This document shows positions 2,890 to 60,000 of a stretch of 60,000 bases of DNA, in pieces (position 1 is the stretch's first letter; each line of letters starts with the position of its first letter). The DNA lies in assembly GCF_037042905.1 (NCBI RefSeq), contig NC_087250.1:11658001-11718000 (forward strand), written 5' to 3'. The stretch is from Lytechinus pictus. Its lineage: Eukaryota. The position numbers and the translations under genes were made by a program. The notes under the pieces are model-generated. The model worked only from the letters and a program-made list of their open reading frames with translations, was not told the origin of the DNA and did no database searches.

Positions 2890-3695
2890 TGATTATGCAT
2901 AGCTATGGTGGTAGCGGTGGGGGTGTGATGGTGTTGATAGTGGTGGTTGTGGTGACGATAATGGTTGTAATGGTGATGGTGGTGGTGATAGTGATGATGA
3001 TGACGATGATGATAATGGTGGTGGTGGTGGTTGTGGTGGCTATATGACGATGACTGTGGTGATGGAAGTGGTGGTGATTGTGGTGGTGATAATGGTCAAG
3101 GTGGTGGTGTTGTTGATGATGATGATGATGACGGTGGTGATGGTATGATAGTAGTTGTGATGGTGATGATGATGGTGGACATGATAACGACGACGACATT
3201 GCCGTTGACAATGATGATGATCATCATAATGATGGGGATGATTGTGGTGGTGATGATAATTGTGATGGTGATGATCATCATGGTGGTAGTGGTGATGATG
3301 ATCGTGATGATCGTAATGATGGGGGTGATGTTGATGATGGTGATGGTGTTGATGATGGTGGTTTTAGTGTTGATGATGATTGTGGTGGTGGTGGTGGTGA
3401 TGATGATGATGATATTGCTGTTGAGAATGATTACGATGATGATGATCATAATGATGGTGAGGATTGTGGTGATGAATTATAATGATGATGGTGCTTGTGG
3501 TGGTGATGGATAAGGGTGGTGGTAGTGATGATGATGATGGTAGTGGTGATGATAATGGTTCTGATGGTGATGATGATGGTGGTGGCGAAGGTGGTGATTA
3601 TTGTTGTGTTGGTGATTGTAGTAGCGATGATGATAATGATAGTTTTGTTGTCAATGATGATGATACTGATTGTGTTTTTAGTGATTATAATGATT
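2890..3695. repeat. Degenerate (GAT/GGT)n microsatellite
   Basis: Direct reading. Confidence 0.9.
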
Positions 3696-12298: not shown

Positions 12299-14820
12299 TG
12301 TGAGAGTCATATCTGCCTGAAAAACAGTATTAGAGTACCTATTTCTGGCGAACGTTCAGGAAGTACCTTATCAGCGGTGTCACCTTGTAATTTGATTCCA
12401 GCCAATCAGATACACGGATTTTAGTAGCTTGTAACAGTTTTGAGTAAAATCCACTTTTTCAATCAGTCCGAGAAACGTTGCCGTGATCCCAACGTACTTA
12501 CAGACCTATATATTTTCTTTCCTTATTTGGTAACTCTTTAAAAGTAATTATCTTCAGTTGGATCGATTGTCCAAATGTCCAAATTATGTACTCCATTGCG
12601 CACATTCATTATTTTCCCGCTGGATTAAAAAAATAATCCAGCTTTGAGCTTTCCCCTTGTGGGTATATGTTTTAAAATGATTGTTATTTCACTACTGTTT
12701 CCAAATTCATTCTTAGGCTTCTTCCAGGGACTTTGTGTGAGCGGCATGACATTTTGCATGTTAAGTATTCCTCAATATTTCCATGGCAACACAGCTGCAA
12801 AATAATTCCTTGAAGTGCCCACTAGTACCCAACTCTTTCCGGACACATGTGAATTTCCAGCACGCGCATACTCACGCAGATCAGCCGTCCGACGCGAAGA
12901 GTCCCGAGGGTGACGTCACATAATCCTTCGCGTAGATACACAAACTCACCAACACTTACTCGTACTTTAACACGCCTAGATGCAACATTTTCCCTTTCTT
13001 TTGAATTTCGTTCCCTTTTCAAGTCTCCTAACCAGCACCGGGATCCGTGCCCTCCTCGTTCGCCACAGAAACATACTGGCAAAAATCGTTTTTCTGCATT
13101 GGTTTTTATACACTTCTCTTATAGATCGCTTCTATCTGATTTAGCTGGCGAGAACACCTTTTGGAAGTAACGATTTTAAAGAAAAATCGAAATGAATCCA
13201 TACTTGTCCCCCTCAGTTTAGATGCGAAAACCCGGCGTGCTTTTATTTTTCTCTCTCATTTTCTTTTTTTTTCTCTTCATTCGTCATCCCCCAAAAATCG
13301 ACTGAAAAAAAGTTCCGTGCACACACAGTGCGGGAGAGTGGCATAGAGAGAAAAAAAAAATCGAAGCGCTGCATTTCTCGTAGAAAGTCGATTTCGTTCT
13401 TCCTCTGTCTCCCATCTCCTCTCTCCTTTTCTCATCCCCTCTCTCCTTTTCTCTTCACCTCTCTCCCCTTTCTTCTTACTAATACATCTTTACATTATTT
13501 TGTCTGTGTACTCGTACTTCATCGTTTATGTTATTCAGGAGAAAGGCTATATCCCACAGTGCCGGTCCTTTGGTCTGATATATATACCACAATCTTTCAG
13601 AGTTTGAAAGACAGCATGGGAATTCGTTTCAAATAATTTCAGTAAATAGATCTTTATCATCATATATGCGAATGGTCCCGATTATGTTTTGCCTTGTTCT
13701 TTGTTACATATATCTTTTAGTTTCATTCATATTATATTCTCGTCTTTGTTGGTTTAATACAGCAATCAATTTTAATCAAGGGACTACTCTTTCTGCAACT
13801 GCTATCAATCACCATGCATAAGAATAGGGAAATGCTGAGTATATTCGTGGGAAACATTTTGGTCTGTACCCTCCTCTTCTTTTCTGTCTTAGTCCTTCAC
13901 CATATTCTATCATTCTTTTTTTTTTGCCCATACACCAGCATTTAATTTTAAACACCATTTCTTCTCCTTCTTCCCCCTTCGTTTTGATGTTCGTATTCTT
14001 TTCCCTATCTTTTTATAACCCATATTTTCCATTATCTTTTTGCTGAAATTCTGACCATCTCTGTCCTATTTCTTTATCAGTTCTAACTTCTTTTCACACT
14101 TTTCCTCTACCACTGATTGTCACCTATACGTTTCTTTCTCACTTCCTTTCTTTCCCTTTCTGTCTCTCTTTCTGTCTCTCTTTCTGTCTCAGTCTTTCCA
14201 AACAAGTTAACCTGAAATATTCCATTAGTCGCAAGGCATCCAATCTTCACCAAATCAAGCCCAAATCACGAACTCCCGACGAGGAAAAGAGAAACCCTTT
14301 CATATCATAAACAGAGAAAAATGATCCGAATTAAGCGAAGCTGAGTAAGACATTTCTCGCTGACTAAAAGCCGTGGTCGCTGGGTAAGAAGACGAAAATT
14401 CAATATTTTCGTGGGAAGAAGATGATTGCTAGCGTTATCGACCTGGTCACAGTCTGTAAGCCCAGGACTCTGGCGGCCTAACGGGGGAGAAAGAGACTTT
14501 ATTTGAAATCTGAGAAGGCTCAAGGAGTGAAGAAAAGAGTAGGAGAGAGAGAGAGAGAGAGGAAAAAAAAATGAATGTGAAAATGAATGAAAACAAAGAT
14601 ACACAAAATTGCCATATTCTTAGTGGGTACATGTTTTCTTTAACCATAATATACTCACATGCTTGAATTTGAATTCACTGGACATAAACATTTTGTTTTA
14701 CAATATATACAATGATAACATAAAAAATATTTATAATAGCAGTATATCATATAAATCAGTAATACATCAATACATTTTCCATGGGTTTCTATTTAATTGG
14801 TATATATATATTTATATATA

Positions 14821-53948: not shown

Positions 53949-55353
53949 TTTATGGTTATTAGTATTATCACTTTTTTTGAGGGGGGGGGGGGGGGAGCCG
54001 GTGGCATATAATTAAATTTATCGTAGTCTAACCCCGTCAGGAAAATAAATCGTGGTTGAACCCTGGAAAGACCTTTTAAAACCCTCTTCATGCTCTTGGA
54101 ATAGAAACACATTTCCTTTTTAAAGCAAAATCATTTGAGTACAATCAAGCAAGCATAAATATGTACATTATATCAAGATCCAACTTAAAAAATAATAACG
54201 TTACAACAATTAAAAAATTAGTTTAGAGTCACAAAAGTGACGATAAAGTTGCTATGCACAAATCAAGACGGTTTGCAATTACCTCACCGTGATTCAATCT
54301 GCATCATATTTATCATGTCAGAGCAACAATAAGATTTTTCTTATATACATGTAAATAAAATGCAACATAAATAGTGCTTTCGTTTGACATTCATAGCTTT
54401 TCACTGGATTCACATATTTTGAGAAATCAATCAAAATGTTGAAATTTCATAACCTCTTTGTATCGCTGGTAAATTTTATGATTTTTTCAGTGTTTTTTTG
54501 TCTTTCAATGTGCACTCCATCACCTCTCCTTCTTGTATGATTTCTAGTTATGTCATCTGTTTATACAAATGAGCTCTTGCACGACCTTGCCTTTGTTTGT
54601 TGGACGAAATCGAAATAGATTAAACAATAGTTAGATAAACCGGGAGAAAATAACATAAAGAGTCAATTAGGCTATAAATGATAAAAAGTCATGAGTTCTT
54701 ATTCTATGAAGTCTCCATTCATCTTTAGGTTAGTTTTGTTGATATATTGTATTTTGACTATCATGACTTCCAATTGATCATCATTTATTCCTTGCTGATT
54801 TGACCTAATACATGTCTCTTAAAAATGAAATAATTGTTAAAAACAAAATCATTTGGGGGCTTTCTTGCAAACTTTCCTCAATCGGAGTAATTGATATTAG
54901 ATTATCTTGTTGGAAACTATAAGGATTTTATGGACATTTTGGAGAACACGTTGACATAGGCGCTACCTTCAAATTAAAGCATTAAACAAATGAAACCCAA
55001 CCCACTTGTTTTACTTGTCTTGAATAAGTTGGGGAAGCTATACCAGAAGTTCACGGTCACATTAACAGGAAGTGAAAGTGTATATATGACTAAGCTAAAG
55101 AAACGATTTCGAAATTATTGGTATGTTGCAATACGTTTCCAAAATAATTTCGCCATCTATGATTTATTTATTTCACAGAATCCTTGAGGTTATATTATAT
55201 ATTGCGGACGAACTCTCTCCATGTCATTGTGTTCAATGCTGGGAAGTTACGTACCATCCAGCAACGCCAACCAACCGCAGATAAAGACGTTTCGTCTGTT
55301 ACTGGGACAGGACGAGAGTATGACTTTATACTGCCGCTAGAGCATGATTGTAG

Positions 55354-56461
55354 ATGGGAAACTTGGTAATCATTGGCTTTAGTGCTCTACGAAACACAAT
55401 CAGGATGCCGTTTGGGTGGATACAGAGGTTGCGGGATAGGATTAATCCCCGATCTGGAGAATCGACACCTTCAACGACGCAGGACATCATGGAAGGGGTT
55501 CCTGATAATCTCCAGGAACACTTCAACGTGATCGTCAATGCTGTCAACCACGTTGAGAGCTCTTCGGACATCCTCAGTAGTACCTGTCTGAGTGGCATGG
55601 TCTTGGTCAAAGAGACGTCTGGCAACTCTGCTCTTGATCAGGGCAGGCTCGGTGACCTGATGGCGGACCGAACGAACTTCTCCCGTATGTTTGTATCGTG
55701 CTGGAAAAAGAAGAATCTGTTGCAGATGTTCATCAATGCTTCAGACACTGACACATTGGTCAAGGAGGCGCAGCGGTCATTTGACTTCTACCGGGCTCTG
55801 GCAGGAATCTCCTGGAACTACACCGACGAGTCGGATGCAATTTGCCTGAAGCTCGAGGAAGAAGGTGGACTGGCAGTACTGGTTGACTGGATGCTGTCCT
55901 TTCAGAGCACCGCCTTGAACAAATGGGCCACAGAGATAGTCTTCAACGTGCTAAACATCCTGCACAACTGCTGTAGGAGGATCGACGACATTCGAAGGAG
56001 CTACCGACGGATCGTCCCAGCGTTGGAGAGGCTGTCCACTTCAGAAGACCTGATCGTCCAAGCGTGTGCTTTCATGACTCTCTCCTACATGGTGGACAAA
56101 GAGGAAGCCGATAAGCTCACCACCAATGCTGCCTGCGTGGACAACCTGCTGACCCTTCTCAAGAAGTCTCTGGAGAACGTCGAGCACAAGATCCGGATCA
56201 CCCGGGAAACTGGTACAGACGCCTTCAGAAGAGGCTTTTCTCTGTCTTCCATCGAGCTCGTTCAGGGTATCGAACAACTTGCCATCAATGACGAGAACAA
56301 ACGCCTTATCGCCGAGACGGATGGCATCGCAATCCTATCTAGGATGCTGGAAATGGATTGTACATCTCAAGAGAAAAGACATGCAGCAGAAGGTATCTGG
56401 CAGCTTGCATTTAGGCAGGAGAACAAGGATAAACTACGAGAAGAGCACGACGTACTCAAAG
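55354..56461 (+). CDS. ARM-repeat/TIR-domain protein, first coding exon (Armadillo-like repeats)
   Basis: 369-codon complex ORF with raised GC. ARM-like motifs: EEGGLAVLVDW, VLNILHNC, GIEQLAINDENKRLIAETDGIAILSRML, AAEGIWQLAF. Donor G|gtaagg at 56461/2; probable acceptor ttcacag| at 55178; in-frame TAG just before the ATG. Confidence 0.9.
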
Positions 56462-57279
56462 GTAAGGTTGAACATACAGAATCAATACAAACCTGGTTTT
56501 GGGTCTGACGAATTAATCTCACGAGAAAATACACCAATGAATTCTGCAAAGCCTCAATAATATTTTATTTTAATAAGCACTTATCGACGTGTAGAGAAAA
56601 AAGAAGACGTCAAAGACCAAGGAGAGAAGAAAAAATTGATGATGAAGAATCCGAAGAATGATGCTTTATGCATGAATGTATCATGGTTGCTATCTAGTTA
56701 ACGAATTATTTTGGGGTTAGATGAAGATTCTGATGGTATTTAAGACTTTATTAAACTATAGCCTTAGGTATCGCCATCTGCAAACTAAAATTGATAGTCA
56801 ATCATTGTTATTACCATGCCTTCTTATGATTACGGTTAAAGAAGAATGGAGTATCTTAAAATCGCAATCAGATATGCATCTTTGAGAAAGAACGGCATGC
56901 AATTGTATTTTCTCATCATAAACTGTTCAACTTGAGCAAACCATAAGCCTGAAAAGATTTCTTTTCCTGGATCACTTTTCACGTGAAACTATGAGACGTA
57001 TTTTGTTACAGTATGAAAGTTGGTTTAATTAGATTGATGATAAAACTCGGAAATTTAATACTGGAGATTACATAGAGTAGACGACCTGCGTCATCAGTTG
57101 ATTCATTTGTAAACACCTGCGATGCCTTGAAAATAAACAACAAAAAACCCAAACACACACTCACATAAATACCCCACTTCTGTTCGGCATATGACATTGA
57201 TTCCCTGATTATTGGCATAAGCGGAATTATAAGGTCAGACGGGAGTATACTGTTTTTTACGTTTATTCTATCATTTTAG

Positions 57280-57552
57280 AACTAATAGCCCTGTCATGTG
57301 GACCCGACCCTGCCCTCAATCGAGCTTGCAAGGGAGCGCTATTCGAAATCTACAGCTCCAAACTTCCCGAAGAGGTGACCACACCAAAGACAAGTACAGC
57401 CTCACAGACGCCCTCTACGACGACTGAAAAACCATCGCAGCATATCATGATAAGCTACAGATGGGAACAGCCTTCAAAGTCTGTCATGAGCGAGATCAAG
57501 AACCAGCTGAAAAGCAAGGGTTATAATGTATGGATGGATGAAGATAAAATGA
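57280..57552 (+). CDS. ARM-TIR protein exon: last ARM helix, S/T-rich linker, start of TIR
   Basis: ttttag|..|gtaagt, phase 1/1, in frame: ELIALSCGPDPALNRACKGALFEI...HIMISYRWEQPSKSVMSEIKNQLKSKGYNVWMDEDKM. Confidence 0.9.
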
Positions 57553-58441
57553 GTAAGTATACCCCCACCCCTAGAATCTTGAACCTTAAACAAGTATTCT
57601 TTCCAAAAGTGTAGCCGCTGTCCTGGACCCCATAACACAAAAGTTAGCGAGGAACGCTTAATAAAATGGCCTATCAAGATCATCCTTGGTTGCGCATTTT
57701 GCTCAGTAGACTGATTAGTAACCAATCAGAATGGATAATTCAAATTATCGATTAATAGCTTATCTTGTGTTAAGTAGACCAAGAGAAGACTTAACTATTT
57801 CGCGTGCAGCCGGGGCTTCATGTAATATGGGGATCATGTGGTCGTATTCTTCTGTGCACTGTATACATTGTGCTTAGTGCTAAGCTTGACAGATGAAAAA
57901 CAAAACCAACAGAGATCAAATCCACTTATGCAAAATAATGATATAATTGCAAACCAGAGTGCATAACTTGACTATAATTATGTCTATGTATTAGGAATTA
58001 TGTATATACCACGTTTATTTACTGTTTGTCTGAAAAATTGTAAATGTTTATACAGTGTAATTATGCTGTTTGAAAAAAAGAACCATGTGGAAGGGTGAAA
58101 AATGAAAAAAAGGAGTGCATAATGGTGGAATTAATATTTCAAACCATGATGGACAGAATTCTGTGACAGAAACTTAACATTTGCCTTTAATAAATTCTCA
58201 TATTATTTTGAAATTCCAGGTGTACCAATTGAAAAACAAATGATGATGGTTATTCATCCAATGCGAAGGCTGAACATGTCACGTGATGACATTATTCAAT
58301 ATATTTAATGCCTGCCGTAAAGGGTAGATCGATTATATAATCCCAACAAACCACAAAGACACAATCACGCTAGAGAACATCAATACTAATAAAAAGGCGT
58401 AAAAATTAGATATCTTTGATATCGGCAATTTCTACTCCTTA

Positions 58442-58603
58442 TACCTTGGTCACATTTGATCTACGGCGGCCGTACGGCGAGTAGATAACAGCCGTTTTAT
58501 TCATTTTTATTCAAACCACCTATATGTAGCTGGTACAAAAAATGTTAAAACGGCTGTTTTCGACTCGCCGTACGGCCGCCGTAGAGCAAATGTGACCAAG
58601 CTA
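58442..58603. mobile_element. Intronic PIF/Harbinger-type MITE
   Basis: tta|taccttggtcacatttgatctacggcggccgtacggcgagt ... actcgccgtacggccgccgtagagcaaatgtgaccaagcta|tta. Confidence 0.9.
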
Positions 58604-58726
58604 TTACCGACCATGGCCATTCATATTGCAATGGATTTTTCAAAGTATTCTTACTGTTTGAGATTTTGTCTGATTTTAATATAAGATAATTAAAAGTGTG
58701 TATATATATTTCTTACAATACTTCAG

Positions 58727-58828
58727 GTGGAGATATAATTGAGAAGATGGCAAATGCCGTTGAGAACTCCTACCTAATCCTTGCTTGCATCACCGAGGGC
58801 TACCAAGAAAGCAAAAACTGCAGAACAG
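58727..58828 (+). CDS. ARM-TIR protein exon: central TIR domain (gene continues beyond the window)
   Basis: cttcag|..|gttcgt, phase 1/1: SGDIIEKMANAVENSYLILACITEGYQESKNCRT(G..); missed by the ORF track. Confidence 0.9.
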
Positions 58829-59657
58829 GTTCGTATCGACGGTCATTTTCATGCTGCTGATTGCAAATCTTTGAGAACCCAGCGACGGATCCAGGATTTT
58901 CCGAAGAGGGGGGGAGGGGGGGGGGGGTACATTTTCCCTAGGAAAAATTTGACAAGCAAAAAAAAGAGTTTTCACTTTCAAAAGAGAAGGGGGGGGGGCA
59001 CACTTCTGTTTAACGTTTTTACATTTTTTAACATTTTTACATTAAGAATAATTAATTGTGCCTCTCATGGGGGGGGGGGGGGGGGGGCACTGGCTGGCTG
59101 CCCCCCCCCCCCTGGTCTGCCAGTGTTTGAACCTACTTTCAATGAAACATATGAAATAATTTTTATCCCTGAATTATTAGGGCTATAAGGAGTAAAATAA
59201 TAATTTTCTCATTAGAGTTCAGACTTAAAGCAGATACGAACCAATAGCGCCATCTTGAGTCCTCAACTACTCATAACTGGTCAGTTTCCTGACCCATAAT
59301 GCTTGTGTAGTCTTGTAATGTAGACCCACGTGAAGGATAACAAGCTAATTAGATAATCAATTCATTTATACCGCAATAATTATGTCACCAAGTAGTAAAA
59401 ATATTACTTTTCCTCTCAAAACATTTTAGTTTCTCTATACAAATACAATTATACATGAAGGTAAATTCATCCTCTGTAGTATTAGTAGATATTTTTTAAG
59501 ACTATAATATACAGTCAATGTGAGACCACACAAAGTTCACTCTCCCTTTAAAAGAAGTAGAATAAAAATCGTTTAGGAATTGACAACTTCGTGAATAAAA
59601 GTGCCTTTGTGCAATCTTTTGAAGGCATTGAGCGGCATTCTGAAAGAATGAGATCTG

Positions 59658-59928
59658 GGCCCCGTCTTACAAAGAGTTGTGATTGATCCGATCAATCAGA
59701 ACTATGGACGGCCAGCAACGTCAACATCTATTATGCATGTTTGCTCAAAATATTTCCTAACTATGATGTATATTCATGCATTCGTTGTTTTCATGAAAAT
59801 TCACTGCGCTTCTCTTTGTTTACAAAGGACATTGTGCAAATTTCCTGTAGAAATTTTTTTTGACACTGATGGATTTCCATAGAGTTACGATTGATTTGAT
59901 CAATCGTAACTCTTTGTAAGACGGGGCC
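59658..59928. mobile_element. Intronic PIF/Harbinger-type MITE
   Basis: ctg|ggccccgtcttacaaagagtt ... aactctttgtaagacggggcc|ctg (CTG target duplication). Confidence 0.9.
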
Positions 59929-60000
59929 CTGATGTTTACTGTGCTAAGACCGAATTTTATTCCAGGTTAGGAATATGAAGAACGTACATACTTTGGGGCA

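Follow-up and report, generated by a model that had tools for sequence, protein, structure and literature searches.

The locus described here raises two questions: how an animal protein that joins armadillo (ARM) repeats to a TIR domain is put together, and whether such a TIR domain acts as an enzyme or as a scaffold. The gene lies near the end of a 60,000-nucleotide (nt) stretch of the genome of the sea urchin Lytechinus pictus, which we call the window (NCBI RefSeq assembly GCF_037042905.1, contig NC_087250.1, positions 11,658,001 to 11,718,000 of the forward strand; the contig, C6 below, is part of an 812-Mb genome). A preliminary description of window positions 55354 to 58828, made from the DNA letters, had proposed three exons that splice in frame into 494 codons and encode an ARM-like helical region, an S/T/P-rich linker and a TIR domain in a SARM1-like layout without intervening SAM domains; a putative NADase or intracellular immune sensor from a poorly characterised invertebrate family was suggested. 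We find a real, expressed and spliced gene of five coding exons, two of them past the window end, whose product of 648 amino acids (aa) starts with a variable N-terminus, after which come ARM (about residues 45-395), a TIR_2-type TIR (about 423-560) and, at the C-terminus, one SAM domain (about 578-648). The explanation that we put forward, with roughly even confidence, is that this ARM-TIR-SAM protein is oligomerised through its SAM domain and controlled by its ARM part, and that its TIR domain processes NAD+ in an immune or stress pathway.

Flanking DNA past the window end was fetched for exons 4 and 5 (region L009, which begins at C6:11716001), and four sequencing runs were aligned to a 9-kb locus that covers the whole gene (L015, in which a position equals the window coordinate minus 55000). 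The features of the gene are the following (a slash marks a splice boundary).

55179..55353, plus strand: 5' untranslated part of the first coding exon; the contig alignments of runs X1 and X15 begin at L015:179.
55354..56461, plus strand: coding exon 1, 1108 nt, a 369-aa open frame with donor AG/GTAAGG, ending in phase 1; residues 1-44 form a disordered N-terminus, and residues 45-369 the greater part of the armadillo-repeat domain.
56462..57279, plus strand: intron 1, 818 nt, GT..AG, phase 1.
57280..57552, plus strand: coding exon 2, 273 nt, with the last ARM helices to about 57356.
57357-57437, plus strand, within exon 2: S/T/P-rich linker, YSSKLPEEVTTPKTSTASQTPSTTTEKPSQH.
57438-57552, plus strand, within exon 2: start of the TIR domain, with HIMISY..W and GYNVWMD.
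57553..58726, plus strand: intron 2, 1174 nt, GT..AG, phase 1.
58727..58828, plus strand: coding exon 3, 102 nt, the middle of the TIR domain, from MANAVENS to YQESKNCRT; its final G opens the Glu495 codon.
58829..60000, plus strand: intron 3, the first 1172 of 1450 nt, ending beyond the window; GT..AG, phase 1.
L009:2279-2485 (window-equivalent 60279-60485), plus strand: coding exon 4, the rest of the TIR domain; begins with AA and ends CAG/GTGAGG.
L009:3267-3520 with the stop codon at 3521-3523 (window-equivalent 61267-61523), plus strand: coding exon 5, the SAM domain, 85 residues.

The exons inside the window sum to 1483 nt (1108+273+102), that is, 494 codons and one G, in agreement with the proposed coordinates. 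The preliminary description had observed that this G would fit a Glu codon and had fixed in advance what the next exon should supply; exon 4 does begin with AA, the codon split across intron 3 is G/AA (GAA, Glu), and the protein reads ...NCRT-E-ATYAYDCNKRIVPVKV..., in which Glu495 is followed by the usual TIR continuation from the alpha-C helix to the beta-D strand. Each of the four introns is of the GT..AG type and in phase 1, and the TIR module, of three exons, and the SAM module, of one, are therefore bounded by same-phase introns, a uniformity that would make exon shuffling easy. An in-frame TAG at 55351-55353 stands immediately 5' of the ATG at 55354, and the first 170-175 nt of the X15/X1 contigs map elsewhere, which places a non-coding exon upstream of window position 55001. 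The five-exon splice product is identical, in 648/648 residues, to the RefSeq protein XP_063956971.1 (P0197), the uncharacterized protein LOC129262952 of L. pictus; its orthologues in L. variegatus (P0006) and S. purpuratus (P0007) are 97% (20 differences in 648) and 83% identical, respectively.

Spliced transcripts agree with this structure at every joint. Runs X1 and X15 consist of contigs from two studies, neither on record as RNA, the molecule type being guessed to be RNA or unknown, and X19 and X20 are raw RNA-Seq; X1 and X15 come from a group of runs that match 0.42-0.44 of the query words, and 0.42 is the exon share of the query (1483/3475 nt). An X1 contig of 1834 nt and an X15 contig of 1829 nt each join exons 1, 2 and 3 without the introns, and additional contigs span the boundaries between exons 3 and 4 and between exons 4 and 5, with GT..AG at the predicted bases in all four joints. 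Raw junction reads were found for exons 2 to 3 (one in X19, two in X20), 3 to 4 (one in X19) and 4 to 5 (two in X20); none joins exons 1 and 2 in X19 or X20, of each of which about 6% was read.

The introns split the TIR domain, and for this reason exons 2 and 3 individually fall below the 28-bit cut-off of Pfam TIR_2, with 23.8 bits (profile positions 1-32, E 6.8e-5) and 19.4 bits (positions 39-69, E 1.6e-3), respectively. The intact L. variegatus orthologue, whose TIR is identical to that of the window protein in 138/138 residues, scores 67.9 bits with TIR_2 (PF13676) and 28.6 bits with Pfam TIR, and every motif by which the domain had originally been recognised is in place. None of the three outcomes named beforehand as refuting the preliminary description (a codon other than Glu, no TIR match by HMM, no spliced transcripts) was thus obtained. 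Exon 5 matches Pfam SAM_3 at 25.2 bits, against a cut-off of 22.6, and the solved structure nearest to it in sequence is the SAM domain of sphingomyelin synthase 1 (SMS1; E 6e-4). Thus, the statement that no SAM domain intervenes between ARM and TIR stands, whereas the impression of a protein devoid of SAM does not, the domain being encoded outside the window.

The ARM region of the window protein gives only sub-threshold Pfam matches, to V-ATPase_H_N and HEAT_2. A profile built from 40 family members matches Vac8 (E 1e-28), ODAD2/ARMC4 (8e-24) and beta-catenin (1.5e-19), as well as designed ARM proteins. In the AlphaFold model of the L. variegatus orthologue (pLDDT 84.1, pTM 0.69), a helical solenoid (51-393) is followed by a five-stranded alpha/beta TIR fold (424-557) and a C-terminal five-helix bundle (582-647), with a disordered linker (pLDDT below 50 at residues 407-418); residues 48-397 of the model align in VIA-align with designed armadillo proteins, p120, beta-catenin, APC and Vac8 (Z 20-22 over 275-320 residues). 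The ARM part is, accordingly, a canonical armadillo solenoid of the Vac8/beta-catenin kind. It shares with the canonical armadillo proteins (Vac8, beta-catenin, APC, p120, importin-alpha, ODAD2) strong profile and fold matches over about 280-320 residues and an LAxNDxNK-type repeat consensus, which is conserved in the family; unlike the sea urchin protein, none of these carries TIR or SAM. When ARM (45-400) and TIR (418-566) were submitted as separate chains to complex prediction, with the alignment unused, the score was 0.01 against a mark of 0.34, which is evidence neither for nor against contact between the two.

The protein belongs to a large and old family, extending from cnidarians (corals) to chordates (amphioxus). 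A phmmer search with the L. variegatus orthologue against 1.84 billion cluster representatives returned 4340 proteins at E<=1e-3, and the stricter limit of E<=1e-30 leaves 220; many of the matches run unbroken from ARM through SAM (about residues 150-648). Taxonomy was looked up for 30 of the 150 listed clusters, a small sample rather than a census: 6 are from echinoderms, 5 from hemichordates, 3 each from amphioxus, tunicates and molluscs, 2 each from annelids, brachiopods and nemerteans, and 1 each from a coral, an acoel and a chytrid fungus (TIR part only), with 1 unnamed; no vertebrate, arthropod or nematode is among the 30. As the preliminary description had surmised, these relatives are mostly uncharacterised: 27 of the 30 clusters are labelled simply as "uncharacterized", "hypothetical", "unnamed protein product", "TIR domain-containing" or with a bare locus tag. 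Of the other three, one is nameless, one from amphioxus (P0166) is automatically named "NAD(+) hydrolase SARM1" in UniRef and one from Pocillopora (P0037) is "myosin-7" in RefSeq; the latter two names look wrong for the family.

Across 40 aligned members, Pfam detects Arm and ARM_ARMC5 in 18 and 20, respectively, and a SAM family (E<=0.001) in at most 11, and the C-terminal block aligns throughout, with near-invariant W580, W588, G606 and P620. The failure of Pfam to recognise this divergent SAM domain probably explains why surveys speak of "ARM-TIR" proteins. The N-terminus is variable. A start of the form MG-x-x-x-[STAGCN], which is an N-myristoylation-type pattern, occurs in 49 of the 151 best hits (54 begin with MG), suggesting that about a third could be tethered to membranes; the window protein and its orthologues do not fit this pattern, having a hydrophobic, Arg-rich N-terminus (MGNLVII... 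in the window protein) whose first 45 residues hold 6 K+R and 3 D+E. Some relatives depart from the common layout: more than one TIR domain occurs in 7 of the 149 hits in which a TIR was matched, and P0158, a 352-aa protein from an amphioxus hybrid, consists of two tandem family-type TIRs without ARM or SAM. In the ESM Atlas, the comparisons with which are leads only, the nearest clusters are mollusc TIR_2+Arm proteins (score 0.98), and SARM1 clusters are listed at 0.94. Two further clusters there, of about 730 aa, combine Arm, SAM_2 and TIR_2, and the commonest known phylum in them is Chlorophyta (phylum known for 11-13 of 57-59 members), a hint that organisms other than animals may also combine the three domains.

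Whether the TIR domain of such a protein could be an enzyme turns, in the first place, on the glutamate completed by exon 4. This residue aligns with the Glu of "CVRE" in RPS4 and is kept in 39 of the 40 aligned members and in 150 of 159 TIR domains (149 of the 151 best hits having a TIR match). Next to it, Cys at -3 is found in 148/159 and Arg at -2 in 144/159, and position -4 is Asn in 95 and Ser in 31 (126/159 together), with Trp in at most 1/159; the window protein has Asn (SKNCRTE), and the family motif can be written S-x-[N/S]-C-R-x-E. A profile restricted to the TIR domain finds Cat1 (1.5e-6), a bacterial SEFIR protein (6e-6), RPS4 (2.8e-5), the ADP-ribosyl cyclase TIR 7xoz (8e-4), SARM1 (2.5e-3) and TIR-1 (4.4e-3), with the scaffold TIRs of TLR1 (0.12) and MyD88 (0.2) ranking lower. 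By this measure, the domain lies nearer to NAD+-processing TIRs than to those of TLR1 and MyD88, its resemblance to the TIRs of Cat1, RPS4 and SARM1 being weak. Among the plant and prokaryotic enzymes (RPS4, RPP1, ROQ1, the BdTIR-like 7xoz and the CRISPR-associated Cat1) are the best sequence matches of the TIR domain, with the Glu aligned in the case of RPS4; they differ in their partner domains (NB-LRR, CARF and others) and in the Trp that is replaced here, and the identity is only about 20%. We consider NAD+ processing by this TIR plausible, at about even confidence.

In the mechanism that we envisage, the SAM domain would oligomerise the protein and thereby bring TIR domains together, and the groove of the ARM solenoid would bind a protein or peptide ligand that controls or localises the assembly. 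The clustered TIRs would then use the near-invariant Glu495 of helix alpha-C to process NAD+, and the output, in an innate-immune or stress pathway, would be cyclic ADP-ribose (cADPR), signals of the ADP-ribose (ADPR) type or depletion of NAD+. Such a scheme has published counterparts: TIR NADase activity requires self-association of TIR domains (PMC8635717), and isolated non-TLR TIRs of mollusc, rotifer, fish, echinoderm and lancelet proteins are reported in a 2026 preprint to produce cADPR in a Glu-dependent manner, with ARM listed among the partner domains of such TIRs in the legend to Figure 3 of that report (10.64898/2026.04.20.719644).

Several points weigh against an enzymatic, SAM-assembled protein. 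The W-x-x-x-E motif is general among NAD+-processing TIRs, and its Trp, which stands at -4 in RPS4 in our alignment and is present in SARM1 and AbTir as well, is missing from the sea urchin protein. Fold comparison, by VIA-align and Foldseek, does not separate an enzymatic from a scaffold TIR: because the window TIR spans three exons, the TIR and SAM fold search was run with the model of a homologue (P0111, a 310-aa natural fragment, 33% identical to the L. variegatus orthologue; pLDDT 87.4), and for its TIR the Hydra TRR-2 (Z 17.4), SARM1 (16.3), IL-1RAcPb (16.1) and MyD88 (16.1) are tied. Oligomerisation through SAM is assumed from the fold only, and the closest sequence is the SAM of SMS1. 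Expression is very low in the two RNA-Seq samples, with an exon depth of at most about 1. The Glu is not sufficient for activity, given that TLR2, IL-1R9 and IL-1R10 carry it and are inactive (10.64898/2026.04.20.719644). Finally, a literature search, covering the available parts of the sources, found no enzyme assay of any family member.

Much of this would be expected if the protein were a non-catalytic adaptor, the most serious of the other explanations and, in our view, a possible one, to be held tentatively. On that account, the TIR domain would pair with TIRs of the very large sea urchin repertoire of Toll-like receptors (TLRs) or of other adaptors, ARM would recruit proteins acting downstream and SAM would multimerise the scaffold itself, and the conserved Glu and its neighbours would serve structure or TIR-TIR contacts. 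The lack of Trp, the existence of inactive Glu-bearing TIRs and a fold that fits MyD88, IL-1RAcPb and Hydra TRR-2 as well as SARM1 all favour it, and "ARM-TIR" proteins are indeed placed among TIR adaptors in two surveys, of oyster (PMC4346834, figure legend) and Aplysia (PMC9334734, Table 5). What speaks for the enzyme is the sequence profile, together with the conservation of Glu, Cys and Arg across phyla in the proportions given above, which exceeds the usual need of a surface contact, and the detection of TIR_2 in 40/40 members, against 16/40 for the TLR-type TIR model.

That the protein might be a strict SARM1 paralogue produced by domain rearrangement, with an ARM part that senses nicotinamide mononucleotide (NMN) or NAD+ and autoinhibits the TIR domain until NAD+ depletion brings about cell or neurite death, we consider improbable. 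The likeness that prompts this idea is real: SARM1, dSarm and C. elegans TIR-1 have the same three domain types, a TIR_2-type TIR with the alpha-C Glu and N-terminal helical repeats; Foldseek ranks full-length human SARM1 first for the whole L. variegatus model (7anw, E 3e-8); in the P0111 model, the 50 rows listed contain a single SAM match, SARM1 SAM1 (6o0s; Z 10.1, rmsd 2.3, 69 residues, 26% identity), and the TIR aligns with that of SARM1 at Z 16.3 (rmsd 2.3, 126 residues, 21% identity). The UniRef name of the amphioxus member and the SARM1 clusters of the ESM Atlas point in the same direction. However, the TM-score of the whole-model match is 0.18, so that this match is the sum of separate domain matches only. 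SARM1 is ARM-SAM-SAM-TIR, whereas the sea urchin protein is ARM-TIR-SAM with one SAM domain, which by sequence is nearer to that of SMS1. SARM1 is not found at E<=1 in a single-sequence search of the PDB, and its TIR is reached by the profile at 2.5e-3. Since the solenoid is of the canonical armadillo kind and the 50 VIA-align rows listed for it include no chain of SARM1, the analogy with SARM1 is weaker than the preliminary description implied. The other conclusion of that description, that the protein is not SARM1, holds. SARM1 has a mitochondrial presequence, in contrast to the N-myristoylation-like MGxxxS/T start of many family members, and the Trp at -4 is missing here. SARM1 is, furthermore, typically a single-copy gene (PMC7075850), as opposed to the multi-copy, tandem family of the sea urchin, with at least 10 loci. 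The protein is not a SARM1 orthologue; it has the same list of domains in another order, and these comparisons neither show nor exclude common descent.

A TIR enzyme with another chemistry (base exchange, synthesis of 2',3'-cyclic nucleotide monophosphates from nucleic acids or an undescribed ADPR-derived product) would suit a family motif that replaces Trp and adds a near-invariant Arg at -2, and many TIR products went unmeasured in the screen of 10.64898/2026.04.20.719644, but we give this little weight, there being no direct evidence for it, and it would in any case be a sub-case of the NAD+-processing ARM-TIR-SAM enzyme with a different product.

The class to which the protein belongs has been named before. 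An ARM/armadillo fold and TIR signatures are combined here in one cytoplasmic protein, which is how Table 5 of PMC9334734 defines "ARM-TIR"; as in that class and the ecTIR-DC families, there is no transmembrane segment, and the family includes mollusc members. The class is described as widespread in invertebrates and missing from vertebrates, with no known function (PMC4346834, PMC9334734, PMC6321704), and the C-terminal SAM domain, by which our protein differs, goes unmentioned in the available parts of these three papers. Likewise, nothing specific on ARM-TIR-SAM was found in what is accessible of two papers on domain shuffling in amphioxus and sea urchin (PMC2575513, PMC2858798). A full-text literature search that included the ecTIR-DC papers did not find the ARM-TIR-SAM architecture in the text available to it; Gerdol et al. 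2017 may describe it. The ecTIR-DC classes themselves reportedly come from Gerdol et al. 2017.

Five paralogues, all on one strand, lie within 58 kb (C6:11713354-11770909), and the window gene opens the array. The remaining members of the array are these.

L009-L014 (C6:11716001-11776000), same strand: four further ARM-TIR-SAM genes, with exon blocks from region positions 12417, 23054, 35388 and 53454, spaced by about 10-18 kb.

Each array paralogue shows the same pattern of five coding exon blocks. Block by block, the identity of these four to the query is 39-42% for ARM, 47-51% for the first TIR block and 58-64% for SAM; for the next paralogue, which has a myristoylation-type start (MGSSAS...), the identities to the window protein are 38% in ARM, 61% in TIR and 62% in SAM. 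Since this neighbour is so far diverged while the TIR is identical in 138/138 residues between the two Lytechinus species, the array predates the split of Lytechinus and Strongylocentrotus. Its members differ mainly in the ARM part, a pattern of constraint that fits a constant effector and oligomeriser combined with a diversifying sensor. Other loci lie on C7, C15 (two), C19 and C16, bringing the genome total to at least 10. The C16 locus (L017, C16:16682001-16692000, minus strand) is consensus-like, with an MGSGTSKS... start, HVMLSYQWD..., NSPACRT/E and a C-terminal SAM; it shares the intron positions DQM/G and CRT/E with the window gene and, unlike it, has the ARM part in several exons. A weak SAM match on C16 was considered as the SARM1 gene of this genome and rejected, its open reading frames (ORFs) being those of this ARM-TIR-SAM member; the SARM1 orthologue of the genome was not located.

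Intron 2 contains, at 58441-58604, a perfect-centre palindrome of two 82-nt arms that are 83% complementary, with no spacer; it is a high-copy repeat resembling a miniature inverted-repeat transposable element, as indicated by a contig depth in the thousands over this bin. In intron 3, at 59653-59933, there is an element with 51-nt terminal inverted repeats, 86% complementary and 179 nt apart, at very high depth in all four runs. Long G and C homopolymers at 58900-59125 of the same intron are accompanied by hundreds of strand-switching or backward ("goes back") joints in RNA reads and by poly-G loose ends, most likely library or alignment artefacts at the homopolymers rather than a feature of the transcript. 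In the 3' untranslated region (L015:6320-7345; window-equivalent 61320-62345), the sequence of X1 contigs departs from that of the genome at dozens of positions and that of several X15 contigs does not; allelic differences between individuals are the probable cause. Window positions 1-55300 gave no convincing coding ORF of >=110 codons; judged without Pfam, the long frames there are low-complexity translations of simple repeats (poly-T/I/L/S type); the 55 kb upstream look gene-poor apart from the 5' non-coding exon.

In one published description, SARM1 alone among animal TIR proteins is known to have enzymatic activity (PMC13455253); the 2026 preprint now argues that catalytic TIRs are common across animals (10.64898/2026.04.20.719644). 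Against this background, the ARM-TIR-SAM family is a natural comparison to SARM1, with the same three modules in another order, a range from corals to amphioxus and a tandem expansion in sea urchins. The gene was already annotated, as uncharacterised, and its class already named; what is added here is a SAM domain at the C-terminus, which makes the order ARM-TIR-SAM, together with the motif S-x-[N/S]-C-R-x-E and a tandem array with variable ARM and constant TIR-SAM parts. Published counts of "ARM-TIR" proteins hide this third domain, the divergent SAM being mostly missed by Pfam.

Taking the argument further, and only as a tentative proposal, the "ARM-TIR" proteins of the surveys could be ancient ARM-TIR-SAM enzymes, found from cnidarians to chordates but not met in vertebrates, that make up a second animal lineage of TIR NAD+ cyclases or hydrolases, oligomerised through SAM, controlled by ARM and independent of SARM1, with a pocket motif and possibly a product of its own and with about a third of its members tethered to membranes by N-myristoylation. 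In sea urchins, variable ARM sensors joined to constant TIR-SAM effectors might then resemble a small immune-receptor cluster. L. pictus is a tractable sea urchin for laboratory work, and transcript data exist for it. Should the TIR domain prove inactive, a near-invariant "catalytic" Glu would be a poor predictor of activity. Should it prove active, it would become testable how domain order, SAM oligomerisation and an ARM domain of the peptide-binding type gate a TIR enzyme and, with that, what role NAD+-derived signals play in invertebrate immunity.

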